From Pyrobaculum aerophilum str. IM2 (GTDB taxonomy: Archaea > Thermoproteota > Thermoprotei > Thermoproteales > Thermoproteaceae), in assembly GCF_000007225.1 (NCBI RefSeq), contig NC_003364.1:480001-512000 (forward strand): a stretch of DNA of 32,000 nt, read 5' to 3'. A model generated the notes under the pieces. The model did not search any database, was not told the origin of the DNA, and saw only the letters and a list, made by a program, of their open reading frames with translations. The translations under genes and the position numbers were made by a program. Numbering within the stretch: the first letter of the stretch is position 1; every line of letters starts with the position of its first letter. This document shows, one piece after another, positions 6,449 to 31,636 of this stretch.

Positions 6449-6542
6449 TGGCGGGCCCGGTGGGATTTCTGGGCGGCATTGCCTGAACCCACGACCTACG
6501 GCTCCGCAGGCCGCCGCTCCATCCAGGCTGAGCTACGGGCCC
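6449..6542 (-). tRNA. tRNA-Arg(GCG) with a ~16-nt intron in the T-loop; CCA encoded
   Basis: The reverse complement reads GGGCCCG-TA-GCTC-AGCCTGGATG-GAGC-G-GCGGC-CTGCGGA-GCCGT-AGGTC-GTGGG-TTCA[GGCAATGCCGCCCAGA]AAT-CCCAC-CGGGCCC-G-CCA. All stems pair. An A/T box (6564-6575) lies ~22-33 nt upstream. Confidence 0.85.
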
Positions 6543-7263: not shown

Positions 7264-7415
7264 CGAGGAGGGCAAGTAACCGTAGACTTAAAGTGGTCAT
7301 AAAGCTCTGACTATTCTCTTATTACCTCGGCATACGGCGAAAGATCGCCGAGCTGACAAACGAATACGCCCTTGGACATGCCTTTTGGTGAGACGGGGAG
7401 TGGATAGGGAAGCCC

Positions 7416-7568
7416 ATGTCGGGTTTCGTCACGGAGAAAAAGGTTGTTTGCATAGTGGGGGGCGAGATGGCCTCTTTTTACGTATTCGATATGCCTCACG
7501 GCGTCTACCTAAGGCTTGAAATCAAACTTGTAGTCAAGGCGGCGCACAGGAGCGATGACAGCGGTTAA
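7416..7568 (+). CDS. small ORF (50 aa), first gene of a repeated two-ORF module
   Basis: MSGFVTEKKVVCIVGGEMASFYVFDMPHGVYLRLEIKLVVKAAHRSDDSG. It is below the 60-aa track cutoff. A paralogous copy at 29334-29456 differs mostly at third codon positions in the FYV.D.P.G core. Confidence 0.35.
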   Translation: MSGFVTEKKVVCIVGGEMASFYVFDMPHGVYLRLEIKLVVKAAHRSDDSG

Positions 7569-7734
7569 TGTAACGTATAGAAAAATGACACTGCCAGAGG
7601 TTTTTGAACCACCGCTGAGGTTTGGGGCGTTCTGGGGGTGCCTTACCCAAGGCGCTTTCAAAGGCATTGACGCGGTGGTGACAGAATTCCGCTACGTATT
7701 GCCTTACTCACTAGCTCAGAAAACGGCCCCGTGA
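7555..7734 (+). CDS. small ORF (59 aa), overlaps the previous ORF by 14 nt
   Basis: MTAVNVTYRKMTLPEVFEPPLRFGAFWGCLTQGAFKGIDAVVTEFRYVLPYSLAQKTAP. Its start overlaps the preceding ORF's end (ATGACAGCGGTTAA). The N-terminus has a truncated homolog at 29475-29507 (METVKVTNNI). Confidence 0.3.
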   Translation: MTAVNVTYRKMTLPEVFEPPLRFGAFWGCLTQGAFKGIDAVVTEFRYVLPYSLAQKTAP

Positions 7735-7808
7735 CGCAAAAGAGGCAATTACAATATTAGGCGTATAAATCCATGAAAAATTTAAAAACAGCCATACACA
7801 TGGATCAC

Positions 7809-7945
7809 GCCCCGGGAGAGGGGGAGCCGTGGCCAGCCGGCCACTCCAACCGGTAGTCTAGCCCGGACAAGGATGTGGGCCTTTCGAGCCCATGACCCGG
7901 GTTCAAAGGCGGAGATCCGCCGTATACATCCCGGCCGGGGCACCA
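7809..7945 (+). tRNA. tRNA-Glu(UUC) with two introns (~38 nt after the 5' acceptor strand; 21 nt in the T-loop); CCA encoded
   Basis: GCCCCGG(7809-7815)-[intron ~7816-7853, boundary ambiguous by 2 nt]-TA-GTCT-AGCCCGGACAA-GGAT-G-TGGGC-CTTTCGA-GCCCA-TGAC-CCGGG-TTCAAA[7908-7928]T-CCCGG-CCGGGGC-A-CCA. Acceptor, anticodon and T stems pair perfectly. TTTAAAAA at 7781-7788 lies 21 nt upstream, and a T-run follows. Confidence 0.72.
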
Positions 7946-7968
7946 CCATTTTTCTAATAATTCTTTAG
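7931..7968 (+). repeat. left copy of an exact 38-bp direct repeat (tRNA-Glu positions ~62-76 plus 23 nt of T-rich downstream flank)
   Basis: CCGGCCGGGGCACCACCATTTTTCTAATAATTCTTTAG is identical at 17015-17052. Confidence 0.95.
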
Positions 7969-8295
7969 CGGGAAGGTCTGCGGGCGCCTCGCCGGTGAGG
8001 CATGAAAGCCGCGAGACGGAGGACGGCGCCAGCGCCTGTCTCAACTGCGGGTTCGCTGATTTTTGAGCCAGCACAACGCCCGCGCCTCGCCCTGTCGATG
8101 CGGGGGGCGTTGCCGCCTCTCCGCTCATCCGCTGTTAGATATAGCGGAGTAGATATGTATCACTGCGCCGGAGGTTTGTAAACGGCCAGGAGCAGAGGGC
8201 TTGCTGGAGTAGGCGTTGGGGATGGCCGCGGCTTTCCCTCTTTACAGACACCACAGCACTATACTTTACAAACTCCCCGGGGGCGATCCAGAGTA

Positions 8296-8320
8296 GTTGT
8301 TTAAAAACATTAAAATTTAG
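8296..8320 (+). promoter_or_regulatory. A/T-rich promoter-like block upstream of the giant ORF
   Basis: 'ttgtttaaaaacattaaaatttag' is the only A/T-rich stretch in an otherwise G+C-rich region. TTTAAAAA (8300-8307) matches the boxes upstream of the tRNA genes. Its spacing to ATG 8323 (16 nt) is shorter than I would expect. Confidence 0.4.
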
Positions 8321-8322
8321 TT

Positions 8323-11300
8323 ATGGAGGATTGGAAAAGTCGTTTTAAACCAACGGCGGGCCACCACTGGGAGCCCCGTTGGGAGCCACGCGGCGAGACT
8401 CCCCGTTGGGAGCCGCGGTGGGAGCCCCACTTCTCCCCGCAGCCAGAGCCCAGGGAAGAACCCCGGTGGGCTCCCCAGTGGGAGCCCCAGCGGGGGCCCT
8501 CCGGCGGGGAGGCCTGGGGGCCTTCGGGAGGGGACTGGAAGCCGCGGTGGGAGCCTCCCCAGCACTACTCCGGGGAGAGCAACTGGCACGGCGGCTACTG
8601 GGGGCCGGCGGAGCTCCGCGAGCAAAGACCCCAGCCGCTTAATTTTGACTTCATCCAGCCGGCCTGGGAGGGCCCCGGGGAGGGGCGCTGGGCGGGAGAA
8701 TCTCCAGCGCCCGGGCCGCGCGAGGCCTTAACTAGGGCGGAGCGCCTGGCCCCCGCGCCGCCTCCCGGGCCTTGGGAGTCAACGCAGCTTTTAGAGGCCG
8801 GCGCCGAGCCCTCTAAACTGCCCGGCCTCTGGGAGGCTGGGCAAAGCCCCGGCGCTGGCCTTACAGCCGCCGAGGGGACGCCGGGGGGTTTCACACAGCC
8901 CGCGGAAAGGCGGGCGGGGGCGGCGGAGCTCCCAGAGGGCAACGCGGCCGGGCGCGTGGAAAAGCCGCCGGACGCATGGGCGGCCGGAGGCGCGGCGCTT
9001 AGCGAAGGCCCTGAGCCGCGGGTGGGCGACGCGGCGCTTGGAGAGGCAGGCGCAGAGGCTTGGAGGGCTCCTGGAGGGACGCACGCCCACGGCCCCGCCC
9101 AGCCGCACGTGGAGTCTGAAAGCCGCCCCTACGGGCGGCCGCCCGCCGAGACCGGGGAGTCGGCGGGCGCTGGCGGCACGCCAAAGCCCTCCGGAGGGCC
9201 GCCGGAGTTTGAGAGGGCAGTTGCGCTTAAGCCTGCGGTGGAGGCGGCGGGCGACTGGCCGCGCGGCGAGGCGGAGGCCAGAAGCGTAGAGCCCGCGGGG
9301 CCTCCCCCGGCCGTCTGGCAGATACGCGAGGCACAGCCAGCGCCTTCTCAGCAACCGCCCAGTGCAGAAGGCGTAACTCCCGCAGAGCCCCATTCCGGGC
9401 GGGAGGACGGCGTAATCCGCGCCTACCTCCAGCCCACCGTTGCGCCACACGCAGAGTCTCCTCATCCCGTCGCTGAGGCTGGAGAGGCCCTCCGCGGTCA
9501 GCACAGAGCCGAGGCGTTGCCTCCCGCCGGGCCGCACGCAGGGGATCTGCCAAAAGCCTCCTTAGAGGCGCCCAGACCCCATGGAGCTGTCTACAAAGAG
9601 CCAGAGGCTCTCCCCGCGAGAGAAGCCGCGCCGGAGATCCAGCGCGGCGAGGCGGCCAGGCCGGAGGTCCAGCGCGATATTATTGAGGCCAAGGCTCAGC
9701 GCGGCGTTGAGGCAACTGGAGAAGCCGGCAGCCCAGCTGGCCTCCACGAGGCCGCCCGGTTAGAATACGCTAAGTCAGCACTCCAGCCGCCAGCCGCGGG
9801 AGGCCTCCAGGAGATCCGCGCAGTTGAGGCGGAGAGGGGGATCCCCCAGGAGTGGAGGGCAGAGATTCCATCCCCAGCCGGAGCAGGGCAGTTGGAGGCG
9901 GCTGGCGCCCACAGCGCCGGGGCGGAGCGCCTAGCCGAGGTCTTGAGGGAGGGCTGGGGAGGGGCGGAGCCGGTTGCGGGAGCCCCCGCGGCCGGCCGGG
10001 TGTTGCCGGTCTTAGAGGGGGCCGTGAGGCCGGCGGAGCTGGCTGGAGTTGAGGCGCCGCGCCTGGTAGAGGCCGAAGCTCCGGCGTATATAGAGCCGGC
10101 CAGAGGAGCGGCTGGGGAGCTTAGGTCAGAAATGGCTAGGTTTAGAGAGGCGGTTGAGGCCTATTTAAAAGGGGCTCTGGACCAGGACTTGTTAAAGGCT
10201 GAGATGGCCAAGGCGTGGGAGGCTTGGGATGAGGCGTTGCGCAAATCGCCGGCCGCGGCCTCCGGCGACCCGGTGCTGGCGGTGTTGGCAGAGGCCTTTA
10301 GAGAGAGGGTGGAGAGGGCGAGGGGGGATAGGGAGGCAGTCGCCGAGCTGGCCAAACTCGCCGAGCTCATGCGGCTCTGGCCTCCGGAGGCCGTGGCCGA
10401 CGCCTTTCGCCACGGGGCAGAGGTCCTTACGGCGGCTGAGGCCGCGGGGTTGAGCGCAGTAGAGCCCTCCCGCGCGGCGGAGCGGGCAGAGGTGGAGGCG
10501 GGGCGTGGGGGAGCCGCCGGGGGACTGGCGGGGGCGGGGAGGCCTCTTCAAATTACTCCGGAGTTGCGCGAGGCCGCTGAGGGGAGGCTTGCTGGGCGGC
10601 GGGCTGTGGGCCGGGGCGCAGTCCGCCCGCCCGCCGCCTTCCGTTTTGAGGCAACCCCTGAGAGAGTGGCCGCGGCTTTGGGAGAGGCCCCCGCGGGCGC
10701 TTACGTGTTGGCGGCCATGGGGAGGGAGCTGGCCGAGGCCGTGGGTAAGAGGCTGGCAGCGCTGAGGGAGGGAGTGTGGAGTCTGTTAGTGGACATAGCG
10801 CCCTACTCCCCGGCGAAGCTCCCCGTGGGGCCTCCCGGCATATTCCACGTCCCCTATAAGAGCCAGCTGGCGGGCTACAGCGACGTGGCCGAGTTTTACA
10901 AAAGCCCGGCAGGCTCCAGGCACTTGGCCCTGGCTGAGGCGCTGGCCCACTTGGCGGCGCACGCCGCCTTGGAGAGGCTGGCCTATAAGCTAGAGGGGAT
11001 CGCGGCGTATATAATCTCCGCGAGGGCGGCGCTGGAGTTGAAGAGGGCCGCGGAGGCGGCCGCCAGGGCTGGGGCGCATTACGCAGAGGTGACGAAAATA
11101 AGCGCCGAGGAGCAGTACAGAGAGGCTGTGCGGAAGGCGGCAGGGGCCTTGCCCGCGGCAGGCCGGCGCGCGGCAGCGGAGCTGGCCGAGGAGCTGGCCA
11201 AACAAATAGGCGGGGCCGCCCGCCTGCTGAAGGCCGGGAGGGACTTGGAAAAGGCCTTGGAGAAAGTGGTAGAGGCCTTGAGGCTGGAGCGCCTCTATGA

Positions 11301-14300
11301 AATACACGGGGACAAGAGGCTTTTACAGGCGGCTTGGGCGCGCGCGGTGTATAAGGCGCTGACGGAGGGTCTGAGGGCCCCTCCCATCAGCGCTCTGGAC
11401 CTCCCAGCCGGGCGCCCGGCGGATCCCGTGGAGGGGGCCGTGGCCTCTGCGGCCAGGCGCTGGCTCGCCGAGAGAGTCGCGGCCCTCAAGGCGGCCGCCA
11501 GGCTCTCCAGCCCCGAGTCAGCCCCGCCCTCCCTCAGGCATTTGGCGAGGGGGCTAGGCGACTTCAAGGCCGAGGCCAGGCGTTTTGTGGAGGAGGCCAA
11601 AAGGGCCGCCGCCTTCTCCCCGGCCGTCAAGGCGGAGCTACTCTCAGCGGCTAAGAGGCTCGCCGCCGCTAGCGGCGTGGAGAAGTACGCTGGGGTTAAG
11701 CTGTTGCAAGAACTGGGGAGAGTCCAGCCGGGCGGTGCCGACTTCTACTCCCTGCCCAAGAGGCTGAGGGAGCTCTCGGGCCTATCCGAGGGCGACTTGA
11801 TTAAAGCCGGCTACTTCGACGAGGCGCTGAGGGCAGTTTACAGCTCGTTGCGCCTGCCGTTTAAGAGGGAGGACCCCAGGCGCGTCGCCGAGGCCCTGGC
11901 CGGGAGGGCCGCGGCGGTGGCCAAAAAGCTAGGCGTAGACCCCTCCCCTCTGTTAAAAGCGCTGGGAGAGCTGAAGGAGGCCTCCGTTGGGGAGGCCCCC
12001 GCCAGAGCCGCGGGGGCGGGGGAGGCGCTGGTCAAATTCGCCGCAGAGGCGGTGAGGGCGCTCGCAGAGAGGAGGGGCGTTAACGGCGGAGACGCCCTAT
12101 ACGCCCTGGCCAGAGCCGTGGCGAGAGGGCTGGGCGCCGGGAGGGAGCTGGCGGCAGAGGCGGTGGCGGAGCTGGTCAAGAGGGGCTCTCCGCTAGCCGC
12201 GAGGAGCGCTAAGACCGCCGAGGCCCTCTCAGGGAGGCTTTTGGCAATACCGGCTGAGGGCTATGCGGAGGGGAGGAGGACTTTTATATACATCTTGCTA
12301 CACCCCTCTCAGCTGGGACAGTTGAAAGAGGTCTTGGACAGAGTGGCCGCGGAGCTGGCCTTTAAGGGATACGCCGCCGCCCCGCGGCCGGCTGAAGCGG
12401 CGTTGTTACTGCCGGAGGTAGAGCTGAGGAGAGGCCTGGTCTACTTAAGGGGAAATCCCTTCGGCGAGTTGAAGAGACTGGCCGAGGCCTTGGTGAGGGA
12501 TGCCGGAAGAGGGGAGGCCGCCGCCTCTGTTGAGAGGCTACGCAGATACGCCCTATATCTGGCGAAGAGGTATGGCCTTGATTACAGCCCGCTTGAGGCC
12601 GGGAGGGAAGAGGCGGCTATTGGCTTCGCGGCAGTGAGGGAGGCGGTGGGGGCTCTTAAGCGCAGGGGCCGCTGGGGTATTTCCCTCAGCATCCCCCTAG
12701 AGCTTATGGAGGGGGCGGCGCTGGCCCTGGGGGTGGAGAGGGACGAGGTAATTGACGTGGAGAGAGCCCTCTACTGGATTTCAAGCTCTGAGCTGGTGCC
12801 CCCATTCGCCTCTAAGAGGGCCTACGCCGCCGCCGTTAGGCTATACGCCGAAATAGCCGGGGTGAGCGAGGGGGAGGTCTGGGAGCATGTGTACGAGCGG
12901 CTGTCCAACACCCTCGGCCCCCATTACATTAGAGAGCTGGAGAAATTCGCCAGGGAGAAGCTTGTGGAGGCATGGAGGCTGGGCGCCGCTGGCAGAAAGG
13001 CGGGGGCGCCCGGCGGGGCCGTGGACAACGCCCTCGGCCGGGCTGCAGGCCCGCCCCCGGCCTCAAACGCTGGGGCTACCGGCGGCCTTATCCCCCCTGG
13101 GGAGAGGGAGGTGGGCGCCGCTTTGTGGCTGGCGAGGTTTTTCGGGGGGCTTGAGGCGGCTAATTACACAGAGGTGAGCCGCGGGCTTGACGGAGCCGCT
13201 GAGCGAGTGCTTGAGGAAGTCAAGGCGAGGGCGCGGGGGGCGTGGTACTGGGAGGCGGCCGCTGAGGCGGCGAGGAGAGTGGTTGAGGTTTTGGCCACGG
13301 CGGCTAGGTCTAGGGCGGCTTTGGAATACGCCTATTTGGCTCTCATTGGCGGGCGGCATGACGGCGATGTCCTATACGGCGAGTACCTCAGGCGCGCCCC
13401 TGAGGAGGCCAGGGGGCTCGTGCTGGAGGCAGGCATTAAATTCGCCCAGCTGGCCAGAGGTATCTGGGAGAGGGCGGAGAGGGCCTTAGGCGAAGTGGAG
13501 GAGGGGCTTGGCCGCGTTGGCGATTTGCGCGACGCGATTTCAACGGTAGCGCAACCCATGGCGGCCGCAATCGCCTACGCAGAGGCCGGACGTTTTAAAG
13601 AGGCAGTTGAGGCGGCGAGGGAGGCAGCCCGGCGTATATACGAGGCGGCCCGGGAGGCCTTTGAAAAAGCCAAGATAACGCTAGAGCGCATATACGAAAT
13701 AATAGTAGAGGCAGTGGCGAGAGTCCTTGACTACATAAAAGCGCATTGGTTTATACTGGCCGCCGCGGCGGCCGGGCTAATCGGCTGGGCCTTTGCACAG
13801 CAATTGGACTACACGCTTTGGCAAGACCACGTGGCGAAATTCGCGCCGCTGATAGCAGGAGTACCAGCATTTAAGGAGTTCAAGACAGCCCTAAGCGACA
13901 GCGACCCCGTGCTCAAGGCGGCTGAGGAGGCGTTAAAGCACATGTCTGAAGACGCGGTTAAGAGGCTGTTTGAAGAGGCCAAAAGGGCTGTGGGACAGAG
14001 CTCAAAGCCGTGGTCTGATTTGAGGAAGGTAGCTAGGGATGTGGAAAGGTACGGCAAAGAGGGCGTTAGGCCGGAGCACGCCGCTGTGGCGTGGGTCCTC
14101 CTTGAGGCCGGGCTGAGGGAGCTGGGCGATGTGAGAGACAAGGCGCTGTCGGCGCTTAGAGAGGCGGAGGAGAAATTGTCAAGGGGCGAGGAGGTAGAAA
14201 TGTCAACAAAAGAGCTGTCGGAATTTGTGAGAAGGGCGCGGGACGTGGCGCACCGCCTTGAGCTGTTGTTTGAAGATCTTGTGAAAAACGTTGAAAAGCA

Positions 14301-16680
14301 CAGCGAAAAGGAGATGAGAAAAGCCCTCGCCGTAACGGAATTGGCCGGGGAGCTGGCTGAGGCGTCTAAAGCTGACTTCGGCGAGCTAGGCGGCGCCACT
14401 CTCGCCGACAAGGTCGTCGCGTTTTTTGAAAGCCTGGCAGAGGGCACGGCGTGGAGCCGCGTTGTGATAAACGCCGCGGAAAGGGGAGAGGCGTACGGGG
14501 CGTTAATCAGAACGCCGAGAGGCGCATTAGACAAATACGGCGCGGGCAGGGAAAAGGCAAAGGGCGAGGAGGGGCGGTTAGGCGCTGTTATCTCCCGTCT
14601 CGCCTACTGGCTCGCCGAGAGAGGCGTTGACAAGGCCGTGGTTAGGCGCGAAGGCGATAAGGTGGAAGTCGTGGTAGACGACGAGACTGTGGCGGAAGTA
14701 AGGATTAGGGCGATCAAGATGGAAGATGAGAGGGAAAGCGTTATCTTCAATGCGTGGGGCAAGTGGGTAGAGGAGGAGGGCAAAAAGGCCGCGGAGCTTG
14801 CGGCGAAAATAGAGCCTAGCAAAGCGAAAAAACACCAAATTTACGCACTGTTGGCCACAGACGGAAGCTATGAGGCAGAGGGCGAGGTCAATGCCAGCAC
14901 CACCTCCGTTCTGCAAGCCGCGTTGTACAGGCGGTTTGGAATGGAGGTGTCACGTACGGAGGGAGGCAATTTGACTGAAGACGGCCTCAAGCCCCAACTA
15001 GCGGCCAAGTTCTACAAGGAGAGCGGCGGGGAGAAGGTGGTGGAAATGATTCGACGCGATTTAGAGGAGGGTTTGAGGACGTTACTGGGTAACGCCAAAC
15101 TAAGGGAGGAGCTTAGAGAAAAGGCGTTGAAGCTCCTCAGCGAGATGAAAATCTCGGTGCAAGGCGCCGACGTTACCGATGAGGGCAGACAGAGGGTAGA
15201 GGAGGCGAGGAGGAAGATTGAGGAGCGTATAAAGAGATTCTTGACGGATCTTCGCCTTGGTGAAAACGGCTCCGTCTGCCTTGTGAATTGCCAATTCGGC
15301 GAGACGGCGCTGACGTATAAGCACGAGCCGTACGCCCGCGTAATTGCGCCGTTAGTGCACTATATTGCCTCAAACGCGCCGGAGGAGGTCATGAGGTTCC
15401 TGGCATATGCAGTGCTTTTCGACGGACACGTGAGGACAGGCGAGATATCCCTCACGCTTGGCAATTTCCGTGTGGCGTCAAGACGCCTCCCGCTTGATGT
15501 TTACGACAAAATCGCTCTGTATATAATCCTCGCCGCGAAATATGGCGTAGGGGTTAATGGAGTGTATGTAAGAGGGCGCGAGATCAGGCTGTATTTCGAC
15601 GCAGAATACGCCACTGGGGTGTTCGCGACGGCGTGGACTGAGCTCTCGCGGCTGTGGAGATTCGGCATGGAGCATGGCCTATACGCCGATCACATTTTTA
15701 ATAAGCTAGATAACATTAGAAGGTACGTGGAGGAGTACGCTAACAAGCTGAGGATTGAATATGAACTTTACAGCCCGCAGGGCGTAGACCCGTGGGTGGA
15801 GGTGAGGTTTAAGGACGATAGGGGAAATGAGATAGCCCACATAAACATTAGGTGGAATGGCGAAAAACTACGCGCCGAATTCACTGGCGCTAAAGAAAAG
15901 GCAGAAAGACTGGCCTCAATACTAAACGCGCTGGGCGCCAGCGTAGAGGCGAAGGAGCTTGGTGGGGAGTGGCGCGTACAGCTTACAACTGACTCCATCA
16001 CCGCAATACGCCGTAAGGAGTGGCTGGAGGCGGTTAAGGCCTTAGTGGAGGAGTTGCACAGAAGGGGAATGGTAAACGAGAGGCAAAGGGATAGATTGCT
16101 GACTGAAATAAACGCCGGGCCCAACGTAGTCGAAATTGCAAACGTGGAGCTCAGCGTTAGGGCGCCGACAACTAACAAATTCAAGCGGCTGGAGATAGTG
16201 TACCAGCCGAGATCTGCAAAAGCCTTTGACGCCGCCGTAAATGCTCTTAGGGACGCTGGCTTTGTTGAGGGAGTACACTTCACGGCAAAAAAGCCGGAAG
16301 GGGGCAAACTTGGCCACGTATACATTAAGTTGCCTGCTGGCCTTTGGCGCCTTGTGGAGCTGAGGAGGCAGGGTGTCGACTGGGCCGACAAGGCGCTTAG
16401 GCGCCTCGAGGAGATTGCAAAGGCGAGAGGTTTCTACGACCTTCTGGAGGAGTACTTAAGGCCGGCTATGGAGGCAGAAACAGTGGACCCGAGAGGGTTA
16501 GTGGCTGAAGATGTCGAGAGAGGAATGAGGGCTGTAGTGAAAGACGTTAAGGCGACGTGGGAGGGCGGTAAGCCTAGAGTTGTGGTGGAGTACGAGGTAG
16601 GCGGGGATGCTAAATCCTTCTTTTTCACTTGGCGCGTAAAAACGGGAGGGGGGGGGGGTTATAGCAGGAGTGAAGCTTAA
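8323..16680 (+). CDS. giant hypothetical protein, 2,785 aa (repeat/low-complexity N-terminal two thirds, one TM-like helix, ordinary-composition C-terminal third)
   Basis: A single frame is uninterrupted for 8.36 kb, including ~3 kb of only moderate G+C where chance ORFs of this length are implausible. No catalytic motif recognised. It may be related to the large 'PaREP2'-type ORFs of Pyrobaculum (memory only). Confidence 0.75.
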   Translation: MEDWKSRFKPTAGHHWEPRWEPRGETPRWEPRWEPHFSPQPEPREEPRWAPQWEPQRGPSGGEAWGPSGGDWKPRWEPPQHYSGESNWHGGYWGPAELREQRPQPLNFDFIQPAWEGPGEGRWAGESPAPGPREALTRAERLAPAPPPGPWESTQLLEAGAEPSKLPGLWEAGQSPGAGLTAAEGTPGGFTQPAERRAGAAELPEGNAAGRVEKPPDAWAAGGAALSEGPEPRVGDAALGEAGAEAWRAPGGTHAHGPAQPHVESESRPYGRPPAETGESAGAGGTPKPSGGPPEFERAVALKPAVEAAGDWPRGEAEARSVEPAGPPPAVWQIREAQPAPSQQPPSAEGVTPAEPHSGREDGVIRAYLQPTVAPHAESPHPVAEAGEALRGQHRAEALPPAGPHAGDLPKASLEAPRPHGAVYKEPEALPAREAAPEIQRGEAARPEVQRDIIEAKAQRGVEATGEAGSPAGLHEAARLEYAKSALQPPAAGGLQEIRAVEAERGIPQEWRAEIPSPAGAGQLEAAGAHSAGAERLAEVLREGWGGAEPVAGAPAAGRVLPVLEGAVRPAELAGVEAPRLVEAEAPAYIEPARGAAGELRSEMARFREAVEAYLKGALDQDLLKAEMAKAWEAWDEALRKSPAAASGDPVLAVLAEAFRERVERARGDREAVAELAKLAELMRLWPPEAVADAFRHGAEVLTAAEAAGLSAVEPSRAAERAEVEAGRGGAAGGLAGAGRPLQITPELREAAEGRLAGRRAVGRGAVRPPAAFRFEATPERVAAALGEAPAGAYVLAAMGRELAEAVGKRLAALREGVWSLLVDIAPYSPAKLPVGPPGIFHVPYKSQLAGYSDVAEFYKSPAGSRHLALAEALAHLAAHAALERLAYKLEGIAAYIISARAALELKRAAEAAARAGAHYAEVTKISAEEQYREAVRKAAGALPAAGRRAAAELAEELAKQIGGAARLLKAGRDLEKALEKVVEALRLERLYEIHGDKRLLQAAWARAVYKALTEGLRAPPISALDLPAGRPADPVEGAVASAARRWLAERVAALKAAARLSSPESAPPSLRHLARGLGDFKAEARRFVEEAKRAAAFSPAVKAELLSAAKRLAAASGVEKYAGVKLLQELGRVQPGGADFYSLPKRLRELSGLSEGDLIKAGYFDEALRAVYSSLRLPFKREDPRRVAEALAGRAAAVAKKLGVDPSPLLKALGELKEASVGEAPARAAGAGEALVKFAAEAVRALAERRGVNGGDALYALARAVARGLGAGRELAAEAVAELVKRGSPLAARSAKTAEALSGRLLAIPAEGYAEGRRTFIYILLHPSQLGQLKEVLDRVAAELAFKGYAAAPRPAEAALLLPEVELRRGLVYLRGNPFGELKRLAEALVRDAGRGEAAASVERLRRYALYLAKRYGLDYSPLEAGREEAAIGFAAVREAVGALKRRGRWGISLSIPLELMEGAALALGVERDEVIDVERALYWISSSELVPPFASKRAYAAAVRLYAEIAGVSEGEVWEHVYERLSNTLGPHYIRELEKFAREKLVEAWRLGAAGRKAGAPGGAVDNALGRAAGPPPASNAGATGGLIPPGEREVGAALWLARFFGGLEAANYTEVSRGLDGAAERVLEEVKARARGAWYWEAAAEAARRVVEVLATAARSRAALEYAYLALIGGRHDGDVLYGEYLRRAPEEARGLVLEAGIKFAQLARGIWERAERALGEVEEGLGRVGDLRDAISTVAQPMAAAIAYAEAGRFKEAVEAAREAARRIYEAAREAFEKAKITLERIYEIIVEAVARVLDYIKAHWFILAAAAAGLIGWAFAQQLDYTLWQDHVAKFAPLIAGVPAFKEFKTALSDSDPVLKAAEEALKHMSEDAVKRLFEEAKRAVGQSSKPWSDLRKVARDVERYGKEGVRPEHAAVAWVLLEAGLRELGDVRDKALSALREAEEKLSRGEEVEMSTKELSEFVRRARDVAHRLELLFEDLVKNVEKHSEKEMRKALAVTELAGELAEASKADFGELGGATLADKVVAFFESLAEGTAWSRVVINAAERGEAYGALIRTPRGALDKYGAGREKAKGEEGRLGAVISRLAYWLAERGVDKAVVRREGDKVEVVVDDETVAEVRIRAIKMEDERESVIFNAWGKWVEEEGKKAAELAAKIEPSKAKKHQIYALLATDGSYEAEGEVNASTTSVLQAALYRRFGMEVSRTEGGNLTEDGLKPQLAAKFYKESGGEKVVEMIRRDLEEGLRTLLGNAKLREELREKALKLLSEMKISVQGADVTDEGRQRVEEARRKIEERIKRFLTDLRLGENGSVCLVNCQFGETALTYKHEPYARVIAPLVHYIASNAPEEVMRFLAYAVLFDGHVRTGEISLTLGNFRVASRRLPLDVYDKIALYIILAAKYGVGVNGVYVRGREIRLYFDAEYATGVFATAWTELSRLWRFGMEHGLYADHIFNKLDNIRRYVEEYANKLRIEYELYSPQGVDPWVEVRFKDDRGNEIAHINIRWNGEKLRAEFTGAKEKAERLASILNALGASVEAKELGGEWRVQLTTDSITAIRRKEWLEAVKALVEELHRRGMVNERQRDRLLTEINAGPNVVEIANVELSVRAPTTNKFKRLEIVYQPRSAKAFDAAVNALRDAGFVEGVHFTAKKPEGGKLGHVYIKLPAGLWRLVELRRQGVDWADKALRRLEEIAKARGFYDLLEEYLRPAMEAETVDPRGLVAEDVERGMRAVVKDVKATWEGGKPRVVVEYEVGGDAKSFFFTWRVKTGGGGGYSRSEA
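8368..8560 (+). repeat. imperfect 12-nt tandem repeats TGGGAGCCNCGN encoding W-E-P-R units
   Basis: tgggagccccgt / tgggagccacgc / tgggagccgcgg / tgggagccccac / tgggctccccag / tgggagccccag / tggaagccgcgg / tgggagcctccc. The protein reads HHWEPRWEPRGETPRWEPRWEPH...WAPQWEPQ...WKPRWEPP. Confidence 0.85.
16648..16658 (+). repeat. G11 homopolymer at the 3' end of the giant ORF
   Basis: 11 consecutive G by direct count. The longest other G/C run I noticed in the window is 7 (31134-31140). Confidence 0.95.
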
Positions 16681-16855
16681 CGACGAGAAGGCCCTAGTGT
16701 TGGCCGCTCTCCTCGGCGATGGGGCAATAAGGGAGAAGAGGGGGAGCATAACGCTAACCGCAAGACATCTACTCGCCCTGGCCAAGTACAAGGGGGCAGG
16801 CTGGGAGTTGTTGAGGTGGTACGCCGAGGTGATGAAAGAGTCGGCAGAGCTTTAA
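16670..16855 (+). pseudogene. out-of-frame continuation of the giant ORF (frame open from 16640); would be fused by a 1-nt contraction of the G11 run or a +1 frameshift
   Basis: The second frame opens at 16640, runs through the G-run and reads ...GGGVIAGVKLNDEKALVLAALLGDGAIREKRGSITLTARH...SAEL. It has no independent promoter or ATG (only GTG at 16670). Confidence 0.5.
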
Positions 16856-16918
16856 GCCCACTTTAAATCTACGGTTAGGAGAGAAAATCTAAAAACACGA
16901 CGGAAAATATGGAGTGAG

Positions 16919-17029
16919 GCGCCGGTTGCTCAGCCCGGCCGGAGTTCCCAGGGGCAAAGCCTCGCGTAAGCCTCATAAGCGGGTCCCGGGTTCAGGCATT
17001 GTCGCCTAGAATTACCGGCCGGGGCACCA
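16919..17029 (+). tRNA. tRNA-Met/Ile2(CAU)-like sequence with two introns; aberrant fold, possibly chimeric or a pseudogene
   Basis: GCGCCGG-TT-GCTC-AGCCCGGCCG-GAGT-T-CCC[intron 16950-16969]GC-CTCATAA-GCGGG-TC-CCGGG-TTCA[16995-17010]ATT-ACCGG-CCGGGGC-A-CCA. Problems are a G3:G70 mismatch, a G53:A61 mismatch and only 2 nt of variable region. The 3' 15 nt belong to the 38-bp repeat. A promoter-like 'tctaaaaa' lies at 16888-16895. Confidence 0.45.
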
Positions 17030-17052
17030 CCATTTTTCTAATAATTCTTTAG
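17015..17052 (+). repeat. right copy of the exact 38-bp direct repeat
   Basis: Identical to 7931-7968. Flanks diverge immediately upstream (c vs a) and downstream (c vs t), with only patchy similarity beyond. Confidence 0.95.
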
Positions 17053-17135
17053 TGGAGGTGTCGTAGAGTCTGCGCTGCGGCAAGTATTGTTAAAGGCTGT
17101 GTGCCGCGTTTTTATATCGGCGAGTTGCGTGGCGC

Positions 17136-17468: not shown

Positions 17469-18328
17469 GCCCCGCAGCCCGTACAGTTATTTAGTATCTG
17501 CGGCACGCCGAGGGAGGTTGGAACAATTGCTGGACACTTGGTTTTAAGACAATCGCCGCATTTATCGCATAAATCTGGATCCACTACATATTTCTTTTTC
17601 TCGTAGGCGTATCCAGTAATGCGGCTTTGGAGGAAATTACACACATCGCCCGGCTCATCTAGAATTACGACATACCCCCCCATCTCGGCCACTTTGGCCG
17701 TGAGGAAGTCGCGGGTTTTGGCTACTGCTATTACAGGACCCGCCTTATAGCCCCCAATTAAAATGCCCAGGGCTATGGCGGCGGCTTTAAGCGGGGGCAA
17801 GTAGACGTCTACTATTTCTGCCACTTCTGCCGGCTCGTGCCACGTCGGAATCACCATGTAATCTGGCCGCGAGGCGGCGCTTGGGGAGAGCCTGACGTCA
17901 GAGACTACTACTGGCACCGCGTTTAACATTTTGAGTTGTGTATAGAGACAAGACATTAGGGGGAGGAGCGGATGTCCTACCTCCACCTTCTCGCCTCCCC
18001 GCGCCCATCTCCACGGCGACATATAGTGTTTATTAAATGTGGAGACTCTGCGGTTTGCAGTCGCGGGCCTAGGCCCCTCGTAGCCCACAGGAATTGAGTA
18101 TATTTCAGAATAATCGACTGCCTTTTCGGCGTCGTTAAAACACGGCAAATCGGGGGGACACGGCGTAATGAGGAGGGCCCCCCACACTGCGCCTTCAACT
18201 GCCCTTAGAGCCTCTCTGCTGGGCCGCGCCTCTACTAATACTTGTCTAAATGTTATTGAGAGGCCGACGCCGATTGCGAATCTTTCGTCGTCGGTATAAG
18301 AAGGGTCGCTTATAATGAATTCAACCAC
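17432..18328 (-). CDS. uncharacterised protein with C-terminal 2x[4Fe-4S] ferredoxin-type domain
   Basis: 298 aa. The C-terminus 'CDKCGDCLKTKCPAI...CTGCGACALLCTRGAI' contains two CxxCxxCxxxC(P) motifs. I do not recognise the ~240-aa N-terminal part. Confidence 0.65.
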   Translation of the reverse strand: MVEFIISDPSYTDDERFAIGVGLSITFRQVLVEARPSREALRAVEGAVWGALLITPCPPDLPCFNDAEKAVDYSEIYSIPVGYEGPRPATANRRVSTFNKHYMSPWRWARGGEKVEVGHPLLPLMSCLYTQLKMLNAVPVVVSDVRLSPSAASRPDYMVIPTWHEPAEVAEIVDVYLPPLKAAAIALGILIGGYKAGPVIAVAKTRDFLTAKVAEMGGYVVILDEPGDVCNFLQSRITGYAYEKKKYVVDPDLCDKCGDCLKTKCPAIVPTSLGVPQILNNCTGCGACALLCTRGAIR

Positions 18329-18742: not shown

Positions 18743-19072
18743 ATGTGGGTATTGCGTAGCTTATTTAAACCCTATGGCGCTTCAAATAAGCAAATTATAT
18801 TCTCGATATTTGTCAATATATTTATATCTCAAACCCTCTTTGCTATTTGTAAATTTAATTGTATAAAGGGTAGTCTTTAAATATGTCCTTAATCTCAGTG
18901 GTTCCAGTAAAATAACTAGAAAGGCATTTAAAATAAATTAAAGAAAAATTTAAAAATGTTTTCATCTTCATGATGCCATGAAGAAGGAGAAGAAAGAGGA
19001 GAAAAAGGAGGAGAAAAAGAAATAATAGAGTAGGGCGCTAAGATTTTTAAAACCCCCTTTCTTTTTCCCTCT
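18743..19072. promoter_or_regulatory. unusually long, very A/T-rich divergent intergenic region
   Basis: About 330 bp between divergent operons. It contains the hairpin CTTCATG-atgc-CATGAAG (18967-18984) and a purine tract (GAA/GAG)n at 18978-19025. Confidence 0.5.
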
Positions 19073-31001: not shown

Positions 31002-31636
31002 CACACGTTGCACAAGCGGGAGAGCGCACTGCACATATCAACTCCCTTTTTAAAGCCGTCTTCCCTACGCATAAAAGTCCCCCACGCCAACTCGTAATCC
31101 TCTATTACAACGCTTTTTAACATATCCTCAATAGGGGGGGTGTACTCTCTTATTAAACCAGCGCCTCTGGCCAGTTGTATGACGTAGTTATTCAGCCCCA
31201 CTCTCGCTCTAAACAATACGTAACTCGCCGCGTCGCAATTGTCGCGGAGTTTGATAACTCTACCGTCAAAATACAGCGGCCGGCCTAATTTTGCCGTAAG
31301 CTCGGCCGAGGCTTGCGAGGCCAACACGCTGATAATCTTAAACGTCCTGCCGCCATAAGGGGCCGCTCTGAAAAATAAGAGGTTTATCTCGTCGCTAACT
31401 ACGTGGACGTAATCAGCCCCCTGGGTCAGCGCCAGCGATTTAGCCACTTCCACAAGCGCGTTGTGTACAAGGCGGCTCCTCGGCGGAGGGAAGTCCTTAA
31501 GCCTCTTCCCGAATCCCACGCCGTCTAGCCTCACCGCGAAGGGGACAGTTGCGGGCTCGCACACAGCCTCTCTTTCTCTAAACCTCATTTCAAGCAGACG
31601 GGGGTTCTCGGCGATTAGCCTCTTTAAGAAATCCAC
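30998..31636 (-). CDS. Thg1-like protein (tRNA-His guanylyltransferase family / TLP)
   Basis: 'FAVRLDGVGFGK' and 'VSDEINLLF' resemble the two catalytic-Asp motifs of Thg1/TLP. Confidence 0.7.
   Translation of the reverse strand: MDFLKRLIAENPRLLEMRFREREAVCEPATVPFAVRLDGVGFGKRLKDFPPPRSRLVHNALVEVAKSLALTQGADYVHVVSDEINLLFFRAAPYGGRTFKIISVLASQASAELTAKLGRPLYFDGRVIKLRDNCDAASYVLFRARVGLNNYVIQLARGAGLIREYTPPIEDMLKSVVIEDYELAWGTFMRREDGFKKGVDMCSALSRLCNVC

Follow-up and report, generated by a model that had tools for sequence, protein, structure and literature searches.

A length-variable poly-G tract near the 3′ end of a giant PaRep2b gene of Pyrobaculum aerophilum

In the genome of Pyrobaculum aerophilum str. 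IM2, a giant open reading frame (ORF) stops shortly after a run of eleven guanines (G11), and a second frame passes through the same run and continues beyond it. The locus lies in a stretch of 32,000 nucleotides (contig NC_003364.1, positions 480,001 to 512,000), which is called the window below and whose own numbering is used throughout. Does the downstream frame belong to the giant ORF, and what does the G11 run represent? A first-pass annotation of the window regarded the run either as an on/off or long/short switch at the C-terminus, or as a recent frameshift or a sequencing-length error. Here, the site was compared with the orthologous loci of related assemblies and with the homologous sites of the PaRep2b family. 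The downstream frame is part of the PaRep2b domain and is no gene of its own. For the run itself we favour, with moderate confidence, the reading that G11 is an out-of-frame length state of a slippage-prone poly-G tract, present as a real variant or in a mixed population.

The G11 run and the interrupted PaRep2b domain

As read directly from the window sequence, the G11 run is located at 16648–16658 of the + strand, with GGGA directly 5′ of it, in the context GTAAAAACGGGA-G11-TTATAGCAGGAGTGAAGCTTAACG. It is a frameshifting tract within the PaRep2b domain, where it corresponds to the glycine codons GGA GGG GGG GG... of a surface loop. The giant ORF (8323–16680, + strand) encodes 2,785 aa, and its C-terminal end reads KTGGGGGYSRSEA. 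The stop codon is located 20 nt 3′ of G11, and the product is truncated, with an out-of-frame end of six residues (YSRSEA). The +1 frame is open from 16640 (TAA is present just before, at 16637–16639), crosses G11 and ends at the TAA stop 16853–16855. This frame reads GGGVIAGVKLNDEK...MKESAEL, and past the run it continues as GGGVIAGVKLNDEKALVLAALLGDGAIREKRGSITLTARHLLALAKYKGAGWELLRWYAEVMKESAEL. The displaced tail (16659–16855, + strand, +1 frame) consists of 65 codons and TAA. The sole start codon in this frame is the GTG at 16670, which gives a 61-aa ORF.

Run lengths of G7, G10 or G13 would fuse both frames. In the case of G10, the fused gene has (16855 − 1 − 8323 + 1)/3 = 2,844 codons, that is 2,843 aa, and this is the exact length of the gene called on the G10 allele of another assembly (L025, see below). 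The first-pass annotation had described the run and the end of the giant ORF, a second frame at 16640–16855 through the same run with only a GTG start, and a joined product of about 2,840 aa after a suitable change of run length. These descriptions are borne out by the sequence, the ORF list and the gene call of L025. The run had also been called the longest G/C run in the window, the next being 7 nt, and a run census of the 32 kb gave the same result. G11 is the only homopolymer longer than 7 nt, and the next G/C runs are C7 at 17675–17681 and G7 at 31134–31140. In dinucleotide-preserving shuffles, a mean of 0.54 G10 matches per window was found, and the observed count was reached in 15 of 100 shuffles. 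Composition by itself is a weak argument for G11 being non-random. However, a depletion of long runs is seen in the real sequence, and among 504 kb of fetched Pyrobaculum DNA, a G/C run of at least 8 nt is present at this site only.

The C-terminal part of the giant ORF matches PaRep2b (Pfam PF07775) from residue 2415 with 453 bits, the gathering score being 20.4 bits. The 71-aa downstream frame alone matches positions 458–511 of the 512 positions of PF07775 (35.9 bits, E 4.2e-9). When the frame is restored, the 528-aa sequence scores 497 bits, and the profile is unbroken end to end. Judged from these scores, the tail matches its PaRep2b homologues far better than chance would allow. The giant frame of the window stops near PF07775 position 457, and the G11 allele has no complete domain in a single frame; the G7 and G10 alleles described below do. 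According to the alignment and Pfam, the PaRep2b-homologous region of the giant gene (15268–16855, + strand) is contiguous only with G7, G10 or G13.

The frame-restored 528 aa were aligned with 25 homologues from P. aerophilum, P. oguniense, P. arsenaticum and metagenomes. The 25 homologues are colinear through the junction, with the consensus W.V..GG.V.A.V.LN.EKA.VLAALTGD...LFALA..KGVGW.LLRWYAEV. The homologue P0003 has a frameshift of its own and diverges a few residues past the junction. All nine of the P. oguniense paralogues are continuous through the site. The tail carries 13 invariant or near-invariant columns of the family (A466, L470, E473, A475, D484, L496, A503, G509, G511, W512, L514, L515 and W517). 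The window corrected to G10 is one residue longer at the junction than every one of the 25 homologues, which indicates that G7 is the family-length state. In the AlphaFold model made on this alignment (mean pLDDT 82), the run is placed in a loop between the strands 447–457 and 464–470, and the tail is predicted as a strand and helices, with pLDDT of about 86–94 until the last few residues. An extra glycine would be tolerated because the run sits in this loop.

In an exact-product look-up, the 61-aa tail ORF gave no record anywhere. An independent gene was ruled out, as the tail is a conserved domain end, an internal GTG is the sole start available to it, and no gene call elsewhere corresponds to it. 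The first-pass annotation held that its proposal would be refuted if orthologues shared the stop of the giant ORF and the downstream frame were not conserved in them. The opposite was found, and the downstream frame is conserved.

Run length at orthologous and homologous sites

The contigs syntenic with the window were fetched through look-ups of the proteins neighbouring the site, and are 99.5–100% identical to the window. Contigs from the public runs SRR4136271–78, SRR4028136 and ERR1254308 show 100% identity to the window, and for ERR14821858 the identity is 99.5–99.8%. The run is G7 and in frame in three independent assemblies, L015 (ENA ERZ1669369), L016 (GCA_009888185.1) and L017 (ENA ERZ936123), which are about 99.6% identical to the window. 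In these assemblies the gene stays open up to the position that corresponds to 16855, and apart from the 4-nt gap there is no indel within 500 nt. L015, L016 and L017 have most substitutions in common, and thus form one clade. The run is G10 and in frame in L025 (GCA_013329805.1, a 254-kb contig), which aligns with the window over 8,898 nt without a mismatch and with one gap of 1 nt. The gene called there is the PaRep2b protein mentioned above, as expected from ATG 8323 and G10. G11, out of frame, was found only in the window. A check of run length and frame in orthologues had been proposed with the first-pass annotation, and its outcome is that both the G7 and the G10 alleles read through to the stop at 16855. 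The coding tract therefore differs in length between close relatives, with G7, G10 and G11 at one site in sequences that are 99.6–100% identical. In the shared 15–20 kb, the other homopolymers of 6–7 nt are unchanged in length across 10 assemblies, and the remaining indels among those assemblies are of 2, 3 and 12 nt, mostly at short repeats.

Length differences between strains are also present in short purine repeats. A 12-nt GAGGAGAAAAAG unit differs at 18996–19007 and a 3-nt GGA unit at 15381, and both are multiples of three.

The comparison with L025 bears on the explanation that the true run is G10 and the deposit overcounts it by one, long homopolymers being hard to call. Apart from the run length, L025 and the window are identical at all of the 8,897 remaining positions, and the gene of L025, with G10, is intact. 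In addition, three short-read assemblies of the window's lineage end 4–53 nt past the run (L029 at 16662, L027 at 16691 and L018 at 16711), a hint that sequencing or assembly is difficult at this site, or that the site is heterogeneous. That the tail is called as a separate gene in no assembly on record also fits an error. On the other side, the window itself shows nothing that points to one, and natural variation between G7 and G10 exists at the same site, so that a real step to G11 is equally natural. G/C runs are reportedly unstable in P. aerophilum, and their length differences between clones are said to be real. We consider a sequencing or assembly error possible, and less likely than a real variant or a mixed population.

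In the reading that we favour, the slippage-prone tract, the ancestral state would be G7, which encodes three glycines and has the length of every other family member. In the window's lineage, G7 would have grown to G10, with four glycines and the frame kept. In the window, one further G would have been added by replication strand slippage, and the frame would be shifted. Translation would then add six junk residues and stop at 2,785 aa, without the last 65 residues, which are conserved and modelled with confidence. P. aerophilum is reported to lack MutS/MutL repair. In such an organism, a run of 10–11 nt should change length often, and cultures are probably mixtures of lengths. We infer slippage as the mechanism, and likewise the loss of function and the heterogeneity of the population. 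In this reading, the window allele is frameshifted and probably impaired.

Several points weigh against this reading. The assemblies effectively represent only two lineages, one with G7 and the other with G10/G11. The apparent preference for in-frame lengths amounts to one event, and may be luck of one in three. G11 may be a miscount of G10, and a real allele and an error look the same in assemblies.

Another explanation is an evolved contingency locus, in which selection keeps the tract for reversible production of the full-length or the C-terminally truncated protein. The tract fits this explanation in being a hypermutable coding tract with both in-frame and out-of-frame states, and in having grown in this lineage instead of being interrupted. 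The gene is accessory, repeat-associated and strain-variable, like phase-varying genes in bacteria. At the homologous sites of paralogues and other homologues, however, the glycine codons are interrupted (GGAGGAGGC, GGAGGGATA and GGTGGGGGG), and the longest G run outside the gene's own lineage is 6 nt (16 sites). The closest homologue (82% DNA identity) has GAGAGGAAGAG at the site. Only this gene has the uninterrupted GGA GGG GGG GTT (G7), and only in the window's lineage has the run grown to G10 and G11. Selection for mutability would keep the tract across strains and paralogues, and among the 16 homologous sites such a tract was not found; no paralogue or more distant homologue keeps the run. 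The G7 clade is uniform, and the OFF state was seen only once. The tract is located at the 3′ end; a frameshift there costs 2% of the protein and does not switch it off, and no phenotype is known. We regard an evolved contingency locus as improbable. Of the proposals in the first-pass annotation, the length-variable tract stands with G7, G10 and G11, and the evolved switch has no support, as no paralogue keeps the run.

The G run as a conserved family feature was ruled out by the interrupted glycine codons of the paralogues. A scan of genome contigs for relatives yielded P. oguniense and one Thermoproteus locus, and no P. aerophilum. Scans of metagenomes, performed with both flanks and a variable gap and with the left flank plus G7, gave no match to the site. 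No PaRep2b relatives were found in a scan of viral contigs.

A further explanation is programmed recoding, in which G11 is the normal state and the full-length protein is produced by transcriptional slippage or +1 ribosomal frameshifting. Runs of at least nine identical bases make RNA polymerase slip in other organisms. G11 meets this length, which is necessary and not sufficient, and transcriptional slippage on G11 is physically plausible. The orthologues are nevertheless in frame with G7 or G10, and a shift is neither required nor conserved. In the sequence, neither a rare codon nor a stop context of the kind usual at +1 sites can be seen. Folding of 16659–16760, 3′ of the run, gave no stable RNA structure (z = +1.0; 172 of 200 shuffles fold at least as well), and on this basis a frameshift-stimulating RNA structure was ruled out. 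Nothing suggests a built-in signal at the run, and programmed recoding is very improbable.

The giant gene and its strain-variable surroundings

The start codon ATG 8323 of the giant gene is also called in the assembly L036, where the N-terminal 2,048 codons are intact. Substitutions between strains are located at third codon positions in 26 of 38 cases against L015, and in 14 of 22 cases against L036. The giant ORF is a real gene, because the start and the frame are kept in another strain and the substitutions are biased to third positions. An A/T-rich box (TTTAAAAACATTAAAATTTA, 8300–8319, + strand) was read directly upstream of ATG 8323, and could act as a TATA-like promoter of the archaeal type, with a leaderless transcript. 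The substitutions inside the gene are found in tight patches (13764–13833, 15852–15867 and 15984–16016), and this pattern suggests gene conversion from paralogous paREP2b copies.

In the N-terminal ~2,300 aa of the giant protein, no Pfam match was found. Pro, Glu, Ala, Gly and Trp make up an extremely large share of the first ~700 residues (8323–~10400), which contain short WEPR-type repeats (a 29-nt repeat family at 8362–8501) and show no family match. GC is high at all three codon positions of this part. Exact-product look-ups of the giant ORF, P0010 and P0018 gave no records. A protein search with the middle 1,400 aa gave three weak matches and missed known relatives such as P0003, probably because low complexity swamped the search.

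When the PaRep2b model was compared with the PDB by Foldseek, LAGLIDADG homing endonucleases were the best matches (E 4.6e-4), with TM-scores of only 0.14–0.22. A sequence search of the PDB gave nothing meaningful. Two LAGLIDADG-like strings are present in the PaRep2b domain, FLAYAVLFDGHV and LVLAALLGDGAI, and the second one is located within the lost tail. As a lead and not as a result, the modelled PaRep2b domain resembles LAGLIDADG endonucleases, which might explain the mobile-element behaviour of paREP2b.

The gene is present in five assemblies, namely the window, L025, L015, L016/L036 and L017. L014 (5151–5350), L039 and L045 are without the region 7278–17063 of the window, and have an inverted copy of 7721–7945 there instead. 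According to a repeat search, confirmed by blastn, a 41-nt direct repeat brackets the giant gene, with copies that are 98% identical and 9,084 nt apart. The left copy (7931–7971, + strand) consists of the 3′ end of tRNA-Glu (CCGGCCGGGGCACCA) and 26 nt downstream. The right copy (17015–17055, + strand) covers the 3′ end of a tRNA(CAU)-like gene, and many short-read contigs break at 17023. Direct repeats of a tRNA 3′ end thus flank a ~9-kb segment that is present or absent between strains, as in tRNA-targeted elements, and the repeats look like att sites. Pfam searches found no integrase or recombinase family in the segment. A simple empty site was not observed in the strains without the segment, where the tRNA-Glu is inverted and the 26-nt part of the repeat is absent. 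Simple integration at a tRNA site as the origin of the giant gene was ruled out by this inverted tRNA.

The left border of the variable segment is the tRNA-Glu(UUC) gene (7836–7945, + strand), which contains inserts of 11 nt after position 3 and of ~21 nt in the T-loop. The raw sequence was missed by ARAGORN and Rfam, and ARAGORN calls tRNA-Glu(ttc) once both inserts are removed. In the strains without the giant gene, the inverted tRNA-Glu is without the T-loop insert. From this comparison, the T-loop insert may be an intron that is present or absent between strains. The tRNA(CAU)-like gene (16919–17029, + strand) was found by brute-force removal of two inserts (20 nt and 16 nt) followed by ARAGORN, and Rfam found nothing here. 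Its acceptor stem contains a G.G mismatch and its T-arm is weak, and it appears to be a hybrid whose 3′ end was replaced by the tRNA-Glu-type repeat. Another tRNA, at 6452–6542 on the − strand, is detected by Rfam with 51 bits and is not called by ARAGORN; it carries a 19-nt T-loop insert at a non-canonical intron position.

An inverted remnant of another paREP2b 3′ end (7277–7335, − strand), which ends in PYAEVIRE followed by a stop, is 83% identical to 16819–16877 on the opposite strand. A 50-aa PaRep2a fragment (7416–7568, + strand) adjoins the remnant, and a PaRep2a fragment is called there in L036, L037 and L042. Judged by these similarities, decayed paREP2 material is present just upstream of the giant gene.

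Relation to known systems and meaning

Homopolymer frameshifts are rescued by transcriptional slippage in the poly-A tracts of insect endosymbionts, in bacterial dnaX and in IS elements. The present site is similar in that a long homopolymer is located at a frameshift, and some transcripts could restore the frame. Those cases are A/T runs and were shown by transcript sequencing, whereas here in-frame alleles exist in close relatives, and DNA alone was read.

The general phenomenon of homopolymer frameshifts and length ambiguity has reportedly been described for P. aerophilum already. The present site is one instance in a gene of a repeat family, and points to no new mechanism. It resembles the unstable G:C tracts that are said to occur in this organism in that a coding G run differs in length between otherwise identical sequences and the frame is broken. 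It differs in that independent assemblies (G7, G10 and G11) were compared, and not clones of one culture.

In the case of the PaRep2b family, the C-terminal ~530 aa of the giant gene fit the profile end to end once the frame is restored. Typical members consist of 370–630 aa, whereas the giant gene adds an N-terminal region of ~2,300 aa, which is of low complexity and rich in Ala, Glu, Arg and Pro. In the P. oguniense genome paper, paREP2 regions mark differences between strains and species, and PaREP2b is called a putative transposon (PMC3558965). The giant gene is similar to the paREP2 of P. oguniense, as some strains have the segment in which it is located and others do not.

In the bacterial contingency loci of Neisseria, Haemophilus and Campylobacter, the length of a G tract also sets the frame of an accessory gene, through slipped-strand mispairing (PMC3639595, PMC4235727). 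Those tracts are conserved between strains, are usually located at the 5′ end or in the promoter, and have a shown phenotype, whereas the present tract is lineage-specific and located 2% from the 3′ end. It is a distant prospect that the site is an archaeal contingency locus, which toggles the last module of a giant PaRep2b protein associated with mobile elements; this module carries the second LAGLIDADG-like motif, LVLAALLGDGAI. If it were true, the toggle would make a population heterogeneous for the activity of a protein that is possibly nuclease-like.

For annotation, the 2,785-aa ORF and the 61-aa GTG ORF are to be regarded as one 2,843-aa PaRep2b gene that is interrupted at a homopolymer. 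The alleles G7, G10 and G11 would form a natural series of stepwise poly-G expansion in an archaeal lineage that is reported to be without conventional mismatch repair. The site would thus be a convenient reporter for slippage rates in Pyrobaculum.

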